Source: Dehalococcoidia bacterium
GTDB taxonomy: Bacteria; Chloroflexota; Dehalococcoidia; Lucifugimonadales; Australimonadaceae
Assembly: GCA_965116015.1 (NCBI GenBank)
Contig: OZ220477.1
Span: forward strand, 2,020,339 to 2,084,338
Reading direction: 5' to 3'
DNA length: 64,000 nucleotides
Shown here: piece by piece, positions 3,535-43,486 of the stretch
Layout of the letters: the number at the start of each line of letters is the position of its first letter
Numbering within the stretch: position 1 is the first letter of the stretch
The notes under the pieces: generated by a model
What the model was told of the DNA's origin: nothing
Database searches by the model: none
Seen by the model: the letters and a program-made list of their open reading frames with translations, nothing else
Position numbers and translations under genes: made by a program

Positions 3535-4491
3535 GTGCCCCAGCTCTATCAGAGTGCCTCGCGGAATATGGGATTCCTGACACTGAGTGGAGGGGAGATA
3601 CTAGTCCCGATTGATGGACAGCATCGTGCAAAAGCGCTTGGTTTCGCCATGACCGGCACTAATAGCGACGGGAAATCCATCCCAGGCATAAAGGGCAACA
3701 CCGCGCTTGCCGAAGACTACGCGCCTGTTATACTGATGCGATTCAATGGCCCAGGGGTGCGTCGAATATTCAACAAGATCAATCGATACGCCAGAGCCAC
3801 ATCAAAAGGACAGAACATCATCACGGACGACGATGACTCTCTCGCTGTCCTCACACGAGAATTGCTTGGCGAAGATGGCCTTATCCCTGCCAGACTAGTG
3901 CGGATTGACGCAAACACGCTCACCGCAAAAGCTCCTGAATTCACGACGCTCGCCACGTTTTACGAAGCCAATATAGCTATAGTACTTGGACTTGGACTAG
4001 AGGGTCCAGGCAAACCGCAAGGCATGAATGACGGGAAGAGAGAAGTTGCCACAGAAGCCGCACGACGTATATGGGAAACTCTTCTCCAGCGCGTTGACCT
4101 CTTCTCCGCGGCTTTGGCGGACACCACGGAGCGGGGAGACGGCGCGCGCATCAGAATTCGCGAAGAAACACTGCTCGGCAAACCCATTGGGCAACTAGCT
4201 CTGGTCCGCGCCTTTATGGAGATGCGCGAACGCTGTGCTGGGATTCACGAGACAACCCTTTGCGACCGCCTTAACCGCATCGACTGGAGCATCGACGCCG
4301 ATCTCTGGAGGGGCGTACTCGTGGCCCCGAATGGTCGCGTCCTCGCTGGCAAGACCACCGTAAACAGGGCAGCTATATTCATTGCCCACCTCGGCGGCGT
4401 CCAGCTAACAGCTGGAGAGCGCGAGACGCTCCTCGAAGCAATCCACGGCGAAGACTGGCGTAGCCACCAGCTTCCCAATCCCGTGGCGTAA
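3535..4491 (+). CDS. DGQHR-domain (DndB-like) protein, probably 5'-truncated or degenerate
   Basis: 'ILVPIDGQHRAKALGF' occurs only ~27 residues from the ORF start. In-frame stops lie at 3484 and 3526. The transposon end is 55 nt upstream. Confidence 0.6.
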   Translation: MPQLYQSASRNMGFLTLSGGEILVPIDGQHRAKALGFAMTGTNSDGKSIPGIKGNTALAEDYAPVILMRFNGPGVRRIFNKINRYARATSKGQNIITDDDDSLAVLTRELLGEDGLIPARLVRIDANTLTAKAPEFTTLATFYEANIAIVLGLGLEGPGKPQGMNDGKREVATEAARRIWETLLQRVDLFSAALADTTERGDGARIRIREETLLGKPIGQLALVRAFMEMRERCAGIHETTLCDRLNRIDWSIDADLWRGVLVAPNGRVLAGKTTVNRAAIFIAHLGGVQLTAGERETLLEAIHGEDWRSHQLPNPVA

Positions 4492-5797: not shown

Positions 5798-5839
5798 AAG
5801 GCGGCCTGTCTCATCCTAATGAGACAGGCCGCCTTTTGC
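5794..5839 (-). other. Perfect 20-bp-stem hairpin with the Type ISP stop codon in its 6-nt loop
   Basis: Arm 5794-5813 pairs perfectly with 5820-5839. The TAG (5816-5818) lies in the loop. On the minus strand the hairpin is followed by CGCGGTTCTTTTAAA. Confidence 0.85.
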
Positions 5840-8800
5840 CATAGGCTGCAAACCTGCATCGTTGGCGAATCCAAAAGCGGCTTCAGCTAGCTCAGGAGAG
5901 CGCCAGACTGCTGGAGTCCAATCACCATCCTCGATGCGCTCCGCTGGCCACTCAGAGACCTCGCCCCAGCCATGCTCTAGGAGACCGCCTTCGCAGCGTG
6001 TAAGGCAATCGTGCAAGTCCGCTGCTTCATTATTGTCGGATGGCCACCTGTCGAGTTGAATGAATCGAGTGGGGGCCTGATGCTCGCCGCGCCTCTTGGC
6101 AACGATGATGCTCTCGTTAATCTTGACGTGCTGGCTGAGATTGATCTGTCCGGGCAAGTGGCAAGTGAGAACGTCGCTAATGTGGTAGCGCTGGGCTAGC
6201 GTACGCCGTGTAACCGATGCAGACGTTGCTGTCATGGCAATGGTTGGGTGGACCATCGCGAGAACGCTGTGCGATGAGTCCAAGCACTTATCCGCCAGAG
6301 CCACGAACAAGGGCGCTATCGAGTTTTTATCAGCGAAATCTCCCATATCCCTGTCGTTACGGACGAGAGTTTCCTCCATGGTGTCGGCTCGCGACCGCAA
6401 TGCCTGCTGCATTTCTCTAGGGAACTTTTCGCCCATCTTGGCGCGATTAGTGAACGGCGGATTCATAATGACAATGCGGGCGTCTTTGGCGGCGTCCACG
6501 GCGTCTTCCAGTTCGACATCGTCGCGGGGGTCCCACACCTGCTTCGACTTGATGGCCTCGTCCGGCAAGTCCAATTCGCCGACTCTGGGGAGAAGCTCCC
6601 TTTGGCCTAGCAGCTCCAGCGTGCCGGTGAACACCCTTGCGGAGTCATGCGGGGACGGCCCGTAGGGCATCAGGCGCAGCCCCATCCGCCGGTAGCGAAT
6701 CTCGTGGTTGCCCGCCGTCAGCTGCGACGCCGCCAATTGCAGCGACACAGGGTTGATGTCGAGTCCCTTGATAGTGTCCTCGACGGCGAGCTTCTGCAAC
6801 GCGGCTAGCTTCTCCTCGCTGGCGCCCTGCGCTCTGGCGCGGCGCTTCATCTCGGCGAGCATAGCCGCCAGCAGCGTTCCGCTGCCGCAAGCCAGGTCGA
6901 CAATCTTGTGCGCCTTCCAGACTTCAGGGTCGCTCCAGTCCACGTCGCCGCAGGCGTCGAGGGTAAGGCTTGCGGCGATGAACGCCGCCGTTGGCCGCGT
7001 GAAGAACGCCCCGTCGCTCGCCTGATTCCCCATCACGCGGTTGAAGAGCGGCCCTGCGTGGTCAGCGCCCATATCAGCGTAGGTTTCGGCGATGCGCTCC
7101 GCCTCCGCCGCGATGTGCCACAGCGCCCGCTCCAGCCCCGCCAGCTTTCCCGTGTCCTCGGCAGCCTGAATGGCCTTGATCGCAGGATCTAGCACTGCCT
7201 TGAAGTCGCGGCTCATAATCTCGTTCCATTCCCGAAGGAGCCGCCGGACGACGTTGACATCGTTCTTGACGCTCTCCAGGGGGCTTACGCCGGAGATCCA
7301 GCGTCCGCTGGCGATGCGCTGGTGGAGCATTGCGGCGTTCATCATCAGCAGCGCGGCGATAGTGCAGCCGTCGGCCTGCTTGTTGCGGCTCTCCGTCTTC
7401 AGGTTGTCGAGTTGGAAGTGGGCGTCCAGTGCGTTCGACAGGCGGTCTTCGCGCAGATGCCGCGCCGCCTCCCCGACGCCCGCTTCGAGGATGTTCAGAT
7501 CGCGCATCACCCGATTCGTGCGCAACCCCGACTTGGAGAGCAAGTTCACGATGATGGCGTCAGTGAGGTTTGGTGAGGGTGCGGGAACTGATGAGCAGTG
7601 TTGCTTCTCCGCTCCGGCGAGTAAATCGAGTAAGCGCTGAGCGTTGCTCTCTGCGACATCCTCGGTAGTACGCTTGACGCGAGGCGGCAAGCGTATGCCG
7701 GCGTCTTCGTTGATCATTTTCTTGGCTTTGTCGATAGTCTTCTCGATGTTCAACTGTCCCGGTGCGCCGTCCGGTCCGGGATTGTCGCGACCGACGCTGT
7801 CAATGCGCGTCTCGACTTCTCCGCCGTCGTTCACCTTCGCGGTGATGATGGCCGTCGGAATCAGCGGCGTGTCTTCGGAGCCGTAGTCGGTTTCTGGATC
7901 TTCGGTTTCCCGCGCATAATCGTCAAGAGGCGTGAGAGTGCCGGGATAAGTCTGCTGCCCCTTCGCGATGGCCTCGGCGGTTTCTTGCGCTTCCCCTGGC
8001 TTGCCAGCGTGCACCCAAGTCTGGATTTTCGTTTCCGGAGTCGCAGTAGCGACGACGGTGGCTTCCTCTTCCGGTTCGGGAGGCAGGTACACCTTCATCA
8101 AGTGCCTTATCTCGTCTTCAATGCGGCTGTCGTGAGCGCGCAGCGCCCGCAGGATCTGCCCTAGCTCCTGCCATCCGTCTTGCGGCCCGCTGGCGGCCAA
8201 CCACTGCTCGGCTTCCGCATTTGGGGGAAAGACGATAGGGCAGATGATGTACCCCATCTCCTTGCCTTGCGCGCTGCGCATAACGCGCCCCACGGCCTGT
8301 ATGACGTCGATGGGACTCTTGCGCGGCTCCAGGAACGCCACCGCGCTGAGGGACGGCGCGTCCGTGCCCTCCCCAAAGATGCCAACGTTGACGATGCCGT
8401 GCGGGTTCTCCCTGTCAGCGTTCGCCAGCCTACTCTTGGCGTTCTCCCGAGCGGCGACGTTGCTGGTCGCGTCCAAGTGCTCCAGCGTGTACTGCGCTGC
8501 GGCGGGCGCTCGCGGAGTTGCCTCTAGCCGTCCCCTCAGCCACTCCCTTACCTTGTCGGTCTGGAGGTGCCTCGCCATATTCTTCGATTTCTCGACGGTG
8601 TTCATAAAGGCGATGCAAGACTTGATGGACACGCTGTCGACCTCGTTGCTCTGCGTGGCTCCGCCCATTGCCAGCGTGAAAGCCAGCCCGCGGAGAAAGT
8701 GCGTGGTCGTGAGCGACTGCCGCCCCTCGTTCGTGGCGTCCGAAGCCAGCGCGTTTGCCGCTTCGTACGCTTCGAGGTCGTTTACTCCGAGGGCGATGAT

Positions 8801-10075
8801 GCGGTAGTCGGAGAGCCACCCGTTGCTGACCGCCTCCTTATAGCTTCTACGGTACAGCTCAACTCCGAAGACGGTTGCGTCGTCCATACTCCGCACGACC
8901 CAATCCTCTTGCTTGTGGCGCTGCTGCTCTTTGGCGTCGTACACGCGCGGCGTAGCGGTCTGATAGACGCGGTATGTGGCGGGGAATCTGCCGTTGTCGT
9001 GGCAGATGGTGAAGTCGCGCAGCTGCTTCTCCAACTTCGGCATGCGGCGCAGACCCGCCGTGCGGTGCGCTTCGTCGGCGATGAGGACAGCGGCGACGGC
9101 TCCGGACGCGACCAGCGCTTCGCCTATCTTGTGGCTGCTCTGATAGGTCCCGAAGATGACGTTGACTCGTTCGCTGCTCTGCCCTGCGCGTATCCAGTCG
9201 GCAATCTCCCCTGAGTCGGTGGTTACCTTGCCTTTCACCTCAGACGCGCTGACGTAGCTTGCGTCCAGCGTGGGGTCGGCGGCGCGGTCCAGCGAACTCT
9301 CCTTAGGGGCGACGGTTGGATCGGAGCACACGGCGAGCGCACAGATGGACTTGCGAGCGTTCTGCAAGTACTCGCGCCGTATCTGGGCGACAAGCGCTAT
9401 GGAAGGGCATAGCACGACAGCCAGCTCTCCCTGCTGGGTCAGCTCCTCGATGATGCGCAGGGAGATGCGGGTCTTGCCCGTGCCGCAAGGAAGGACGATC
9501 TTCCCGCGAGCCTGTCCTGCCGGCAGCCCGCCGCTATCCGACTGTACGTGCTCCTTGAGGGCGTTGACGCTCTCCTCCACGGCCTCGTTCTGCATGCACT
9601 GCAGAGTTTGGCGGGGCGGGTTGCCGTCGTCGTCGCGCGCGGCGTCCGGGTCGCAGTGAGGGCAGTACTCAGCCTGCTCGACGAGCGGCTGGGCGAGAAG
9701 GTCGGCGTGGATGTTGACGAGCTTGAGTTGCTGCGCGGCTACAGACAAGCCCTGCTTGGCTTCGCTGCTCAGCTGATTGGCGCCGTTGGTGACAAGCCAG
9801 CGCTCCGCCCAAATCGGCGCGCTGGCGGCTGCGGTGAACTTGTCCAGCTCGCCTTTGTGGATATCGTCGCCCTTGCCAGAGGCATCAAGCTTCCGCGCCT
9901 TGCACTGGATGGCTATGTACTGATCGCCGCGTTTGGCGACGGCATCGATGCCGACATCCGTTCTGGTGGATTCTGGGAAACGCCCTGTCCGTTCGGGCCA
10001 GTCGCCCCAGAGCCAGCACTCCTCGATGTCCCAGTCCTTGATGTGCGGCCCTGCCTCGACGACGAGGTTCTCCAA
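5816..10075 (-). CDS. Type ISP-like restriction-modification enzyme (Mrr-like nuclease + SF2 helicase + gamma-class N6-A methyltransferase)
   Basis: PD-(D/E)xK-like 'DVGIDAV...IAIQCK'. Helicase motifs 'CGTGKT', 'IADEAHR', 'QTATP', 'QAVGRVMR'. Methylase motifs 'DLACGSGTLL' and 'IMNPPFT'. TTG start. Confidence 0.8.
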   Translation of the reverse strand: MENLVVEAGPHIKDWDIEECWLWGDWPERTGRFPESTRTDVGIDAVAKRGDQYIAIQCKARKLDASGKGDDIHKGELDKFTAAASAPIWAERWLVTNGANQLSSEAKQGLSVAAQQLKLVNIHADLLAQPLVEQAEYCPHCDPDAARDDDGNPPRQTLQCMQNEAVEESVNALKEHVQSDSGGLPAGQARGKIVLPCGTGKTRISLRIIEELTQQGELAVVLCPSIALVAQIRREYLQNARKSICALAVCSDPTVAPKESSLDRAADPTLDASYVSASEVKGKVTTDSGEIADWIRAGQSSERVNVIFGTYQSSHKIGEALVASGAVAAVLIADEAHRTAGLRRMPKLEKQLRDFTICHDNGRFPATYRVYQTATPRVYDAKEQQRHKQEDWVVRSMDDATVFGVELYRRSYKEAVSNGWLSDYRIIALGVNDLEAYEAANALASDATNEGRQSLTTTHFLRGLAFTLAMGGATQSNEVDSVSIKSCIAFMNTVEKSKNMARHLQTDKVREWLRGRLEATPRAPAAAQYTLEHLDATSNVAARENAKSRLANADRENPHGIVNVGIFGEGTDAPSLSAVAFLEPRKSPIDVIQAVGRVMRSAQGKEMGYIICPIVFPPNAEAEQWLAASGPQDGWQELGQILRALRAHDSRIEDEIRHLMKVYLPPEPEEEATVVATATPETKIQTWVHAGKPGEAQETAEAIAKGQQTYPGTLTPLDDYARETEDPETDYGSEDTPLIPTAIITAKVNDGGEVETRIDSVGRDNPGPDGAPGQLNIEKTIDKAKKMINEDAGIRLPPRVKRTTEDVAESNAQRLLDLLAGAEKQHCSSVPAPSPNLTDAIIVNLLSKSGLRTNRVMRDLNILEAGVGEAARHLREDRLSNALDAHFQLDNLKTESRNKQADGCTIAALLMMNAAMLHQRIASGRWISGVSPLESVKNDVNVVRRLLREWNEIMSRDFKAVLDPAIKAIQAAEDTGKLAGLERALWHIAAEAERIAETYADMGADHAGPLFNRVMGNQASDGAFFTRPTAAFIAASLTLDACGDVDWSDPEVWKAHKIVDLACGSGTLLAAMLAEMKRRARAQGASEEKLAALQKLAVEDTIKGLDINPVSLQLAASQLTAGNHEIRYRRMGLRLMPYGPSPHDSARVFTGTLELLGQRELLPRVGELDLPDEAIKSKQVWDPRDDVELEDAVDAAKDARIVIMNPPFTNRAKMGEKFPREMQQALRSRADTMEETLVRNDRDMGDFADKNSIAPLFVALADKCLDSSHSVLAMVHPTIAMTATSASVTRRTLAQRYHISDVLTCHLPGQINLSQHVKINESIIVAKRRGEHQAPTRFIQLDRWPSDNNEAADLHDCLTRCEGGLLEHGWGEVSEWPAERIEDGDWTPAVWRSPELAEAAFGFANDAGLQPMAKGGLSH

Positions 10076-10670: not shown

Positions 10671-10806
10671 ATCCTCTACTATGCTCTGATATTTTCTATA
10701 GTATGCATAAATGCTCTAAAAGAGTCAATAGGCATCACATATACCCTTGACTATTCTGCTGAGTCATGGTAGAGTGGGGCGAAATGACCCAGCCCTAGAG
10801 GTGGAC

Positions 10807-11751
10807 ATGGCGAAATGCGGTCCAGGTCGGTATGAGCGAAAGGGAATCAGCCTGAAAGAAGCGGTGGAGCTTGCGGCGGACAATGCCGCAGCTGAGCAGT
10901 GGTTCGAGAGCGTCCGATGGCCTGACGGCGTACGATGCCCACGCTGCGATGGAAGCAACATCCTCGAACGCAAGAACCGCAAGCCGATGCCCTACAAATG
11001 CCGATCCTGCAACCGCAACTTCTCGGTCAAGGTGGGAACAGTGATGCAGGCGAGCAAGATCCGCTACGGCGACTGGTGGCTCGCCTGCTACCTGCACTCC
11101 ACGAACCTCAAGGGCGTGTCCAGCATGAAGCTGTCGCGCGACCTCGGACTCACCCAGAAGCACGCGTGGCACCTGCTCCACCGCATCCGCAAGGCTTGGG
11201 ACGATAGCAGCACCCCGCGCTTCGACGGAAAGGTCGAAGCCGATGAGACCTACATCGGGGGCAAGGAGCGGAACAAGCACGAGTCGAAGAAGCTGCGCGA
11301 AGGGCGGGGCGCAGTCGGCAAGGTCGCAGTCGTCGGCGTGAAAGACCGCGATACCGGCATGGTCAAGGCAAAGGTCGTTCCGTCCACAGACGCCCGCACG
11401 CTACAAGGATTCGTCGAGGAGGCCACTGAGCCTGAAGCCACCGTCTACACCGACGAGGCGCGTGCGTATCAAGGGATCAACCGCCAGCACGAGGCGGTCG
11501 CCCATAGCGCAAAGGAGTTCGTGTACGGGCATGCTCACACGAACGGGATCGAGAGCATGTGGTCGATGATGAAGCGTGGCTATATGGGCGTGTACCACCA
11601 CTGGAGCGCCAAGCACTGCCAGCGGTATGTTGACGAGTACGCCGGACGGCATAACGCCCGCCCGCTCGACACCATCAAGATACTGGCGCGAATCGTAGTC
11701 GGGATGAATGGCAAACGCCTGACTTACCCCCAGCTCATCGGCACGGTGTAG
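10807..11751 (+). CDS. IS1595-family DDE transposase (copy 2)
   Basis: 314 aa with only 4 substitutions relative to 1246-2190. Confidence 0.85.
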   Translation: MAKCGPGRYERKGISLKEAVELAADNAAAEQWFESVRWPDGVRCPRCDGSNILERKNRKPMPYKCRSCNRNFSVKVGTVMQASKIRYGDWWLACYLHSTNLKGVSSMKLSRDLGLTQKHAWHLLHRIRKAWDDSSTPRFDGKVEADETYIGGKERNKHESKKLREGRGAVGKVAVVGVKDRDTGMVKAKVVPSTDARTLQGFVEEATEPEATVYTDEARAYQGINRQHEAVAHSAKEFVYGHAHTNGIESMWSMMKRGYMGVYHHWSAKHCQRYVDEYAGRHNARPLDTIKILARIVVGMNGKRLTYPQLIGTV

Positions 11752-29057: not shown

Positions 29058-30165
29058 CTAAACCTGCGACCCGTCGACGCTCCACAACAGATACGCGCGC
29101 ATCAGCTCGTTCAGCTCCCCGTCGAGCACAAGCTCCGGATTGGTCGACTCGAACCCCGTCCGATGATCCTTCACAAGCTTGTACGGATGCAGCACGTAGC
29201 TCCGTATCTGGTTCCCCCAGCCGGCAGCGACGTGCTCCCCCTTCAACGCAGCGCGCTCCTCCGCGTGCTTTCGCTCCTCGATATCGATTAGCCGCGCGCG
29301 CAGAATCTTCATCGCCGCCTCGCGGTTCTGTAGCTGCGACCTCTCATTCTGGCAAGAGACCACCAGCCCCGACGGAAGATGCCGAATGCGCACCGCCGTC
29401 GAATTCTTCTGCACGTGCTGCCCACCCGCCCCGCTCGCCTTGAACACCTCCATCTCGATGTCGTCAGGATCGATCCGCACCTCAATATCCCCTTCAGCCT
29501 CCGGAAGCGCCTCCACAAGCGCGAACGACGTGTGCCGGGCGTGCGCAGCGTCGAACCGCGAAAGACGAACCAGCCGGTGCACGCCCCGCTCGGCTTTCGC
29601 GTACCCATACGCGTTCGGCCCCGAAATCTCCAGCGTAACGCTCTTCACCCCAGCCTCTTCCCCAACCGACAGATCAAGCGCCGCCGACCGGTATCCCGAA
29701 AGCTCCGCCCACCGCGTATACATCCGCATCAGCATCTCAGTCCAGTCCTGCGCGTCAGTCCCCCCGGCCCCCGCGTGGATTGCGATGATCGCTCCGCGGT
29801 CGTCGTGCTCCCCCGAGAGAATGAGATCAATCTCCCGCCGCTCCGATTCCGCCGCCAGCTGCTCGAACTCAGCGCCCAGCTCCGCGGCAATCTCTGCATC
29901 TTGCGCCTCGATCGCCAGCTCCGTCAGCTCCGCCGCGGAGGCGATTCGCCCTTCAAGCCCCCGCCACCCGTCGATGCTCGACCGCAGACGCGCCAGACGC
30001 TTCATCGTCGCTTGCGCGCTCACAGGGTCGCTCCAGAAATCAGACTCCGCCGCCGCCGCTTCCAGACGGTCGGCCTCTACCGCGCGGCCAGCAACGTCAA
30101 AGACGCGCCATGACATCGGCGACGTGCTCGCCTAAGTCGGCGAGGCGCTGGCGCAGCTCATCCAT
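29058..30165 (-). CDS. prfB: Peptide chain release factor 2 (programmed +1 frameshift)
   Basis: Frame 0 (30165-30100) reads 'MDELRQRLADLGEHVADVMARL' and ends at CTT TGA C. The +1 frame (30098-29058) carries 'SGAGGQHVQK' (GGQ) and the RF2 domains. Confidence 0.9.
30096..30102 (-). promoter_or_regulatory. RF2 autoregulatory +1 frameshift site CTT TGA C
   Basis: Exact canonical heptamer on the minus strand. The downstream frame continues the RF2 protein. Confidence 0.85.
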
Positions 30166-40309: not shown

Positions 40310-40388
40310 TACCCCCCGATTGCGATACAATCAACGCCTGCCCGTGACCGCCCAGCCAGCAGGGTTCAGGAATGCTGAAACCCCGTAG
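40310..40388 (+). pseudogene. Degenerate duplicate of the sortase 3' end
   Basis: 'PRLRYNQRLPVTAQPAGFRNAETP*' compares with the sortase end 'PRLRYDHRLLVTAQLIGFKNAQPA*'. A third partial copy lies at about 40043-40091. Confidence 0.5.
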
Positions 40389-40434
40389 AGAACGCGCCGC
40401 TCGCTCCCTCCTGCGCACGACGCAACGTTACACA

Positions 40435-41538
40435 ATGTTACGAAATGTTACGGCAGTCGCAGTAATTGCCGCCGCGCTCGCCGCCTGCTCCCCCGCCGAC
40501 CCAACCGCCACGCCTGCCCCGCCTCCCTCTGAGCCGGCAACCACTTCTGCGCCAACCCTATCTCCAACAGCCCTAGATGATCTCACGGCGCAACATACCG
40601 CAACACCAGCTCCCCCCACCGCGACACCAGCGCCCTTTGCCGCGACGCCCAACTCCCCTGAGGCCATGCCAAGCCCCGCCGCGACCCCCACGCCCGCCAA
40701 TGGCGACGGCGAGCACGTATCCTTCCCTCCTACCCTGCCTCCCTCCGACCGCGCGCCCGCGTCAACTCCTACCCTGCCTCCCTCCGACCGCGCGCCCGCG
40801 TCAACTCCTACCCCGCCTCCCTCCGACCGCGCGCCCGCGCCAACTCCCACCCCGCCTCCCTCCAACCGCGTCTCCGCTCCAACTCCCACCCTGCCTCCCT
40901 CCAACCGCGTCTCCGCTCCAACTCCCACCCTGCCTCCCTCCAACCGCGTCTCCGCTCCAACTCCCACCCTGCCTCCCTCCAACCGCGCGCCCGCCCCAAC
41001 TCCCACCCTGCCTCCCTCCAACCGCGTCCCCGCGCCAGCCCCTACTCCTACCTCTATTCCCACGCTAGCTCCCACCCCAGTCCTAGCCGCCGCCTGGCGT
41101 GTCGACATCCCCGTTGGAGCCGAAATCGGCGACCGCGCGTCCGACGCAACCCTCACACTTCCCAACGGAACCACAGCGTCGCTCCAGGAGCTGGCCGCCG
41201 GCAAGCCGCTCCTCCTCTACTTCTTCGCCACGTGGTGACCAACCTGCCGCGCCGAGTTCCGGACGCTGGGAGAACTCTACGACGACTACCGCGACGACAT
41301 CGTCATCGTCGCGGCAGGCTGGAACGAAACCGCCGCAACGCTCGGCCGGTACGCGTCCGACAATGGACTCGATTGGGTATTCGCTCAGGGCGAGCTCGAC
41401 CTTGTCTCTAGCTATCAAGTGCGGTCGCAGTCGTCCAAGGTGGCTATCGACGCCGACGGCGTAATCGCTATGCGCTCCGGCTATCGCCGCGGCGGCGGCG
41501 ACTACTGGCGCGCTCTCCTCGGCAGCCTCAGAGAGTAA
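40435..41538 (+). CDS. Lipoprotein with a Pro-rich repeat linker and a TlpA/ResA-like thioredoxin-fold domain; in-frame TGA at the first Cys of WCxxC (candidate selenoprotein, or pseudogene)
   Basis: Lipobox 'AALAACS'. '...GKPLLLYFFATW-TGA-PTCRAEFRTLGELYDDY...' reads through in frame to the TAA at 41536-41538. Confidence 0.55.
40730..41041 (+). repeat. Eight tandem 39-bp (13-aa) repeats, PTLPPS(D/N)R(A/V)(P/S)A(S/P)T
   Basis: Units read directly. Several adjacent units are identical. Confidence 0.9.
41254..41277 (+). other. Small hairpin 16 nt downstream of the in-frame TGA (possible SECIS-like element)
   Basis: GAGTTC(C)...(G)aGAACTC: a 6-7 bp stem with a bulged A and an ~8-nt loop. Confidence 0.25.
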
Positions 41539-41745
41539 AACGCCAACCCAGACCGCCCCTGCGCAGGAGAGATTCGGAAGCTAACAGGGAGCAGCCCCAA
41601 CGCCCGCAAGGCGACAGGCGCCCGCTACCTCACCGAACTTCAAACAGGGAATGCCAGCGCAAAGCGCCCGCAAAGACAAGCCTCATGAACCGGTGCACAG
41701 TAGCCTACAAACACGTACAGGACGACAGGCCAACTACCCGCTCAG

Positions 41746-43368: not shown

Positions 43369-43486
43369 GCTTGGTGGTTAGAGCGGAGTGGAACCACCCG
43401 TACCCATCCCGAACACGGAAGTGAAACGCTCCAGCGCTGACGATACTGGTAGGGCGACTTGCTGGGAAAATAGGTCACTGCCAGGC
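43369..43486 (+). rRNA. rrf: 5S ribosomal RNA, stand-alone
   Basis: Conserved 'CCACCCGTACCCATCCCGAACACGGAAGTGAAAC'. The terminal helix 43369-43377 / 43478-43486 pairs. No 23S rRNA upstream. Confidence 0.85.

Follow-up and report, generated by a model that had tools for sequence, protein, structure and literature searches.

The window analysed here, a stretch of 64,000 nucleotides (nt) from the forward strand of contig OZ220477.1 of a Dehalococcoidia bacterium (assembly GCA_965116015.1), contains on its plus strand, at 40372-41538, a gene whose reading frame is interrupted by a UGA codon at 41236-41238. This UGA very probably encodes selenocysteine (Sec), placed in the active site of a redox enzyme that has a thioredoxin fold and a membrane anchor, as judged by sequence comparison. 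A reading of the same DNA without database searches (the sequence-only reading) had noticed the in-frame TGA at the position of the first Cys of a W-C-x-x-C motif and a continuation of 99 codons to the TAA at 41536, had proposed a candidate selenoprotein, and had recommended confirming the base call, aligning orthologs and looking for a selenocysteine insertion sequence (SECIS). The TGA and the open frame beyond it are as described, and the proposal itself gains support from conservation of the TGA in orthologs, from a covarying hairpin downstream of it and from confirmation of the base. The comparative evidence consists of the conserved UGA, Sec/Cys pairs among homologs, purifying selection downstream of the UGA, covariation and synonymous constraint in the hairpin, and the use of UGA as an ordinary stop in other genes of the window.

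The TGA is found within TTC TTC GCC ACG TGG TGA CCA ACC TGC CGC, that is, at the first-Cys codon of W-C-x-x-C, and the same frame continues past it for 99 codons until the TAA at 41536-41538; with read-through, the translation is ...LLYFFATW*PTCRAEFRTLGELYDDY... The whole gene has 388 codons including the UGA and starts with ATG at 40372 or, as assumed in the sequence-only reading, ATG at 40435, whereas the open reading frame (ORF) reported by the gene caller, 40372..41238, ends at the TGA. Sec would occupy the N-terminal, attacking position of a U-P-T-C motif, and the second, resolving Cys, encoded by TGC at 41245-41247, is invariant in the alignment of homologs. In such GC-rich DNA an open frame of 99 codons is unremarkable, and the window contains 124 TGA sites flanked by at least 60 and at least 40 open codons. 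What goes beyond chance is that a single Pfam match to Redoxin/AhpC-TSA (E = 1.6e-12) crosses the TGA, covering residues 14-127 of 149, with the TGA as residue 50. GC content by codon position after the TGA (0.67/0.49/0.79) resembles that of well-established genes nearby in the window, nuoH (0.65/0.45/0.78) for instance. No other selenoprotein gene was seen in the window: among the 124 TGA sites with open flanks, a redox motif together with a spanning domain occurs only at 41236.

The base itself was confirmed in independent assemblies, as the sequence-only reading had advised. A 4031-nt Logan contig from run X1 (depth ~224) is identical to the window over 40999-41700, and a 3421-nt Logan contig from run X2 (depth ~92) has six differences, none of which affects the TGA.

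We scanned a genome collection and found TGA at the equivalent codon in two further Dehalococcoidia metagenome-assembled genomes (MAGs), OZ241740.1 (L001, a complete chromosome, 74% identity) and L002 (66% identity), in both of which the in-frame continuation is conserved and the position of the stop unchanged. Among database proteins only P0005 and P0006 are close, and both end in ...YFFATW, i.e., they are cut at the equivalent TGA; in the contigs that encode them (L003 and L005), TGA is found at the equivalent codon, the frame continues beyond it and ends at the equivalent position. Two tandem paralogs are present in each of L002 and L003, with TGA in both copies. A scan of metagenomes, seeded on the peptides LQELAAGK and LLYFFATW, which are blind to the choice between Sec and Cys, added 20 loci, with TGA in 15 (35-49% identity), Cys in four and His in one (L025); the motifs of the 15 TGA loci are U-P-S-C, U-P-T-C, U-P-V-C, U-A-V-C, U-T-V-C, U-P-I-C and U-P-H-C. 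Altogether, TGA is observed at the equivalent codon in 20 distinct homologs (34-74% identity) and Cys in seven others. Alignment and translations of the loci place Cys in the Sec column of P0001-P0004, L017, L018, L023 and L024, which are more distant homologs, so that the in-frame UGA is aligned with a Cys of homologous proteins, forming Sec/Cys pairs. The comparison of orthologs suggested by the sequence-only reading has, in this way, returned TGA in two Dehalococcoidia genomes and in metagenome contigs, with a conserved frame after it, and Cys in distant homologs.

Two observations on these loci stand apart. The marine metagenome contigs L020:522 and L021:1150, both of the Sec form, lack one nucleotide of the 5' arm of the hairpin described below, just past UxxC. 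This deletion shifts the frame and reflects either pseudogenization or an assembly error common to both contigs. Also, further Logan contigs of 3303, 1386 and 1496 nt, found in a comparison with X1, X2 and X3, match only 41223-41269 of the window, a 47-nt block with two to three mismatches, and have wholly different flanks; the block encodes FATW-UGA-PTCRAEFRTL plus the hairpin and belongs to a further gene for a thioredoxin-fold protein in these samples, with which the UGA and SECIS block is shared at the level of nucleotides.

Coding conservation continues downstream of the UGA. The ratio of non-synonymous to synonymous substitution rates (dN/dS), calculated by the Nei-Gojobori method for the 99 codons that follow the TGA, ranges over 0.30-0.47 among six pairs (dS 0.31-0.86), and that of the 49 domain codons before the TGA is 0.07-0.22; the stop position is preserved and, as noted, the Pfam domain extends across the UGA. 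The dN/dS values indicate that the part of the gene after the TGA is translated and under selection, which rules out both a pseudogene and a true stop at this position.

A conserved SECIS-like hairpin (GCGCCG-AGUUC-CGG-A-CGC, 41249-41266, plus strand) follows the UGA, with the apical loop at 41255-41259 and a conserved G at 41256; it was recognized by RNAalifold, by covariation and by the behavior of synonymous sites. The alignment consisted of 18 distinct Sec-form sequences, taken from -6 to +48. Unaided, RNAalifold pairs 41249-41254 with 41260-41262 and 41264-41266, leaving A41263 bulged, and in the window sequence the stem can be extended to 41244-41272. The hairpin is conserved in all 18 sequences, and compensatory changes on both sides affect four of its six pairs according to RNAalifold and five of nine in a count over nine pairs; in the latter, 78% of the cells are paired, compared with 27-41% in slid registers, and none of 500 shuffles reached either the observed covariation score or the observed percentage of pairing. 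The compensatory replacements include C-G to G-C in L006_2236, L003_11417, L019 and L022, and G-C to A-U in L006_868.

As the hairpin doubles as coding sequence for a conserved peptide, C-R-A-E-F-R-T-L, we also inspected synonymous sites. Four-fold degenerate codons inside the hairpin are nearly fixed (CGC in 13/14, GCC in 17/17, CGG in 17/19 and ACG in 17/18), whereas comparable codons outside it vary (Thr at -2, 10/20; Ala at -3, 15/20; Leu at +10, 9/19; Val at +21, 8/15). Likewise, the Phe codon is TTT in 13 of 15 cases inside the hairpin, as opposed to TTC in 38 of 40 just upstream. Where a codon does deviate inside the hairpin, the change is a compensated one. Seven Cys-form homologs were compared in the same region, and the hairpin is kept only in the closest of them (L026, which has TGC in local sequence that is otherwise identical); it is disrupted in L027 and missing from the others. 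The Cys form at L026:250 (P0001, TGC) and the Sec form at L016:65 (TGA) are near-orthologs, and the intact hairpin of L026 looks like a fossil SECIS, pointing to a recent switch between Sec and Cys.

Published criteria for the bacterial SECIS (bSECIS) are a loop of 3-9 nt, G in one of the first two loop positions followed by U, a spacing of 16-37 nt and a minimum free energy (MFE) not above -7.5 kcal/mol (PMC13188914, Fig. 2 legend). The hairpin at 41249-41266 falls within all of these: the window has the loop AGUUC, most orthologs a GUU loop with A-U as its closing pair; the G-U of the apical loop lies 17-18 nt after the UGA, with 16-17 nt between the UGA and the loop; the MFE is -8.3 kcal/mol for the 22-nt core in the window (range, -8.3 to -9.0) and -13.8 for 40 nt. 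Its upper stem, with 3-4 bp before the bulge, is at the lower limit of the bSECIS model. The SECIS search proposed by the sequence-only reading has, therefore, led to a covarying element that agrees with the published model, although not to the hairpin which that reading had pointed out. The latter (41254-41277, GAGTTC...GAACTC) does exist in the window, but it is not conserved in orthologs, L001 having GAGTTT...GGCATC, and it was set aside in favor of 41249-41266.

Several other explanations of the UGA can be weighed against decoding as Sec. The sequence-only reading had itself put forward a simple TGC-to-TGA nonsense mutation as the alternative; a recent mutation of this kind, leaving a pseudogene, or else a sequencing error, requires only a one-base change from TGC, and the close Cys form L026 does have TGC at this place. 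The probability of this is nonetheless negligible, as TGA is common to 20 distinct sequences, down to ~35% identity, the downstream part shows no decay, and two assemblies agree on the base; conservation of the TGA together with the downstream dN/dS rules out a nonsense mutation. The gene caller, for its part, predicts that UGA terminates translation, giving a lipoprotein fragment of 288 residues, with the downstream part untranslated or made separately, and a separate small ORF is also called after the TGA in L003 and L005. Such a fragment would end in the middle of the thioredoxin fold, just ahead of the active site, and the called downstream ORFs start about 20 codons past the TGA, beyond the second Cys, although the intervening stretch is the most conserved part of the protein. 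Given also that every homolog retains the frame through the TGA and that the downstream codons are under purifying selection, we consider termination to be very improbable. There is next to no chance that UGA has been reassigned to a sense codon throughout the genome, an option for which no support was found and which the sequence-only reading had already doubted, having seen TGA as an ordinary stop elsewhere. We agree: of the 33 genes of the window that have Pfam support, nine end in TGA, each where its protein is expected to end, release factor 2 (RF2) has a UGA-dependent frameshift site, and no suppressor tRNA was found in the window.

The RF2 gene, prfB, is located on the minus strand at 29058..30165 (TIGR00020, 450.5 bits versus a cutoff of 370), with the programmed +1 frameshift site CUU UGA C at 30102-30096, 22 codons after the ATG at 30165-30163; on account of this site, ORF lists show only the downstream frame of prfB. 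The protein has S-R-F for the expected S-P-F stop-recognition tripeptide (codon CGG, 29556-29558, minus strand), while each of the 17 closest relatives that were aligned has SPF or SPY. The codon of the window recurs in Logan contigs of X1 (depth 262) and X2, and a related strain in X3 has the canonical Pro codon (G at 29557), so that SRF is a genuine variant, at strain level, of a motif generally regarded as invariant. The variant might conceivably weaken termination at UGA and so raise the insertion of Sec. It might also be thought to favor recoding of this UGA to a standard amino acid, either Cys or, by way of a near-cognate tRNA, Trp, an explanation to which the lack of Sec machinery in the window and in the fetched loci would also lend some weight. 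However, TGA is conserved in relatives with canonical RF2, for example in the L001 genome (RF2 = P0012, SPF), and the UGA is for this reason independent of the variant. Moreover, the covarying hairpin lies at SECIS distance, where it would be needed for SelB-dependent decoding and needless for simple read-through, and an enzyme with Trp as its catalytic residue would be inactive; we regard recoding to a standard amino acid as quite improbable.

Decoding of the UGA as Sec, which we prefer, has to be held against several observations that weigh the other way. No selA, selB, selD or tRNA-Sec gene was found within the window, which covers 64 kb of a 2.39-Mb genome, or the fetched loci, as searched with ARAGORN (the window and 19 loci), Pfam (40 large ORFs of the window) and Rfam (the window), and a search for RNA runs found none. 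The hairpin is short, 6-7 bp with a bulge, and its single-sequence fold is not significant (z = -1.64), in keeping with the doubt expressed in the sequence-only reading, so the case for it rests on comparison. It has no match in Rfam, as neither a search of the window at gathering thresholds nor a permissive search of 41150-41400 retrieved a SECIS or tRNA-Sec family, the only match in the permissive search being a chance one to a miRNA (E = 3.8). Furthermore, the hairpin overlaps the conserved peptide, and its nucleotide conservation is in part driven by the protein; the synonymous-site and covariation tests address this overlap, but they are based on about 20 related sequences. With respect to the Sec machinery, the occurrence of several UGA-containing paralogs per contig and of a further paralog in the same samples argues for a working Sec system. 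In the same class, the cultured Dehalogenimonas alkenigignens has selC, genes of Sec synthesis and selB (PMC4918011), and BSepDB includes Dehalococcoidia MAGs with up to 46-49 selenoproteins (PMC13326102).

With UGA decoded as Sec, the gene would give a single polypeptide of about 367-388 residues. The hairpin at 41249-41266 may act as a bacterial SECIS, at which SelB-GTP-Sec-tRNA(Sec) would bind and deliver Sec in competition with RF2. The N-terminus of the protein, MLRNVTAVAVIAAALAAC, reads by eye as a signal peptide with an L-A-A-C lipobox (40435..40488), in which the putatively lipidated Cys39 is encoded by TGC at 40486-40488, and an (L/F)-A-A-C-(G/S) lipobox is found in most homologs for which the N-terminus is available, Sec and Cys forms alike. 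The product would be exported, lipidated and tethered through this Cys to the outer face of the cytoplasmic membrane, with a long Pro/Thr-rich repeat linker bearing the TlpA/ResA-like domain. At the U-P-T-C active site, the selenolate would attack and the Cys would resolve, and the protein is most likely an extracytoplasmic thiol-disulfide reductase or isomerase.

The linker (40727..41037) is a 39-nt tandem repeat, with eight copies and 94% matches, that encodes a 13-residue unit PTLPPSNR(V/A)(S/P)APT; its length differs greatly among orthologs. The X1 and X2 assembly graphs break into many short high-depth pieces over the same 40727-41037 interval, and the copy number may accordingly vary or be mis-assembled. 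The catalytic domain (41089..41535; 149 residues including Sec) was assigned to the thioredoxin fold, TlpA/ResA/Redoxin-like, by Pfam and by sequence matches to the PDB. It scores 47.9 bits with Redoxin (cutoff 26.6; E = 1.6e-12), 47.2 with AhpC-TSA (cutoff 26; 2.7e-12) and 31.3 with Thioredoxin_8 (cutoff 27). The nearest solved structures by sequence are thioredoxin, tryparedoxins and ResA, and in the two best-scoring of these, 4fyu (thioredoxin) and 9fov (tryparedoxin), W-C-P-P-C aligns with W-[U]-P-T-C. NCBIfam models remain far below their cutoffs (ResA, NF002854, 50.9 versus 170; DsbE, TIGR00385, 33.5 versus 123.15; TlpA, NF047696, 24.2 versus 230), and the protein is, on these scores, not an equivalog of ResA, DsbE or TlpA. 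It probably works like these enzymes, yet stands outside the named families.

In the close clade the gene follows those for tRNA-Val and a sortase and precedes rplS and pfk, and the adjacency to the sortase is kept in this clade only. The neighbors of distant Sec forms are different, including glutamine synthetases, transporters of the major facilitator superfamily (MFS), a P-type ATPase and molybdopterin enzymes, and because they are unrelated no partner can be named. No gene for cytochrome c maturation or for CcdA/DsbD was seen when the large ORFs of the window were examined. Elsewhere in the window, two near-identical transposase genes of the IS1595 family are found in the same orientation at 1180-2190 and 10747-11751. 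The island between them is defence-like: it encodes a DndB-like protein at 3535-4491 and, at 5816-10075, a helicase-nuclease of the Mrr/ResIII type with 1419 residues. The gene for an N6/N4 methylase, at 8-901, is situated just outside the island. The bracketed island looks like a composite mobile element. The GC skew of the plus strand is -0.11 to -0.27 over about 28 kb (14000-42000) regardless of the strand of the genes, and approximately -0.05 past 42 kb. A 5S rRNA gene (43370-43486) stands alone, with no 16S or 23S rRNA gene within the window.

The gene and its homologs in L001-L003 and L005 may conceivably constitute a distinct subfamily, lipoprotein-anchored and of the UxxC type, whose minimal SECIS (6-7 bp, GUU loop) is part of the C-R-A-E-F-R-T-L coding block, whose 47-nt module of UGA and hairpin is shared in its nucleotides by otherwise unrelated paralogs, and whose function is tied to the adjacent sortase, for example in keeping the catalytic Cys of that enzyme or its substrates reduced outside the cell. 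We consider this broader proposal unlikely.

The gene is a new, unannotated member of an already documented kind of UxxC TlpA-like selenoprotein, and its novelty is modest. General knowledge of selenoproteins is left unchanged, given that both UxxC TlpA-like selenoproteins and Dehalococcoidia rich in selenoproteins have been documented. What changes is the annotation: databases present this gene and its orthologs merely as lipoprotein fragments ending in ...YFFATW (P0005, P0006), and, as the entries stop at the TGA, a whole clade of putatively extracytoplasmic Dehalococcoidia selenoenzymes is invisible to standard gene calling. In addition, the locus offers a compact bacterial SECIS that is well supported and is accompanied by natural compensatory variants and by Sec/Cys sister genes, material that can be used to train selenoprotein finders and to study how Sec is converted to Cys.

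The prototype of the bacterial SECIS is that of E. coli fdhF. Like the bacterial consensus (bSECISearch model, PMC13188914), the candidate element at 41249-41266 is a stem-loop located directly downstream of the UGA within the coding sequence; its small apical loop has a G with U next to it, and its spacing and MFE also agree with the consensus. It departs from the consensus in its very small size (3-4 bp, then a one-base bulge and a further 3 bp) and in having the bulged A on the 3' arm.

Selenoproteins with UxxC that are TlpA-like (cd02966) or Prx-like (PF00578) have been known since 2004-2005 and are included in a 2026 review (PMC1088965; PMC13188914, Table 1). The thiol-disulfide isomerase-like UxxC selenoprotein was first reported from the Sargasso Sea metagenome (PMC1088965), and the protein discussed here shares with that family a TlpA-like thioredoxin fold, Sec in the first position of UxxC and widespread Cys homologs, as well as the manner of its discovery, by Sec/Cys pairing in uncultured marine or environmental bacteria. 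The likeness to this family (representative MGB1650493.1) is drawn from shared descriptors only, i.e., the TlpA-like domain and UxxC; unlike it, the protein encoded in the window has a lipobox, a long Pro-rich repeat linker and, in the close clade, a sortase neighbor. The Prx-like thiol:disulfide oxidoreductase selenoprotein (PF00578, UxxC/UxxU; PMC13188914) is similar in that our protein matches AhpC-TSA (2.7e-12) and in that both have a thioredoxin-like UxxC instead of the peroxiredoxin TxxU; compared by description with WP_010940744.1, our protein differs in scoring at least as high with the models for Redoxin, ResA and TlpA. Finally, ResA, CcmG (DsbE) and TlpA, which are Cys forms (PDB structures: 4nmu, 1st9 and 2b1k), have the same fold, the same position of W-C-x-x-C, and a membrane tether with the catalytic domain outside the cytoplasm, as predicted for the protein of the window, which is set apart from them by Sec in place of the nucleophilic Cys and by NCBIfam scores far under the cutoffs.

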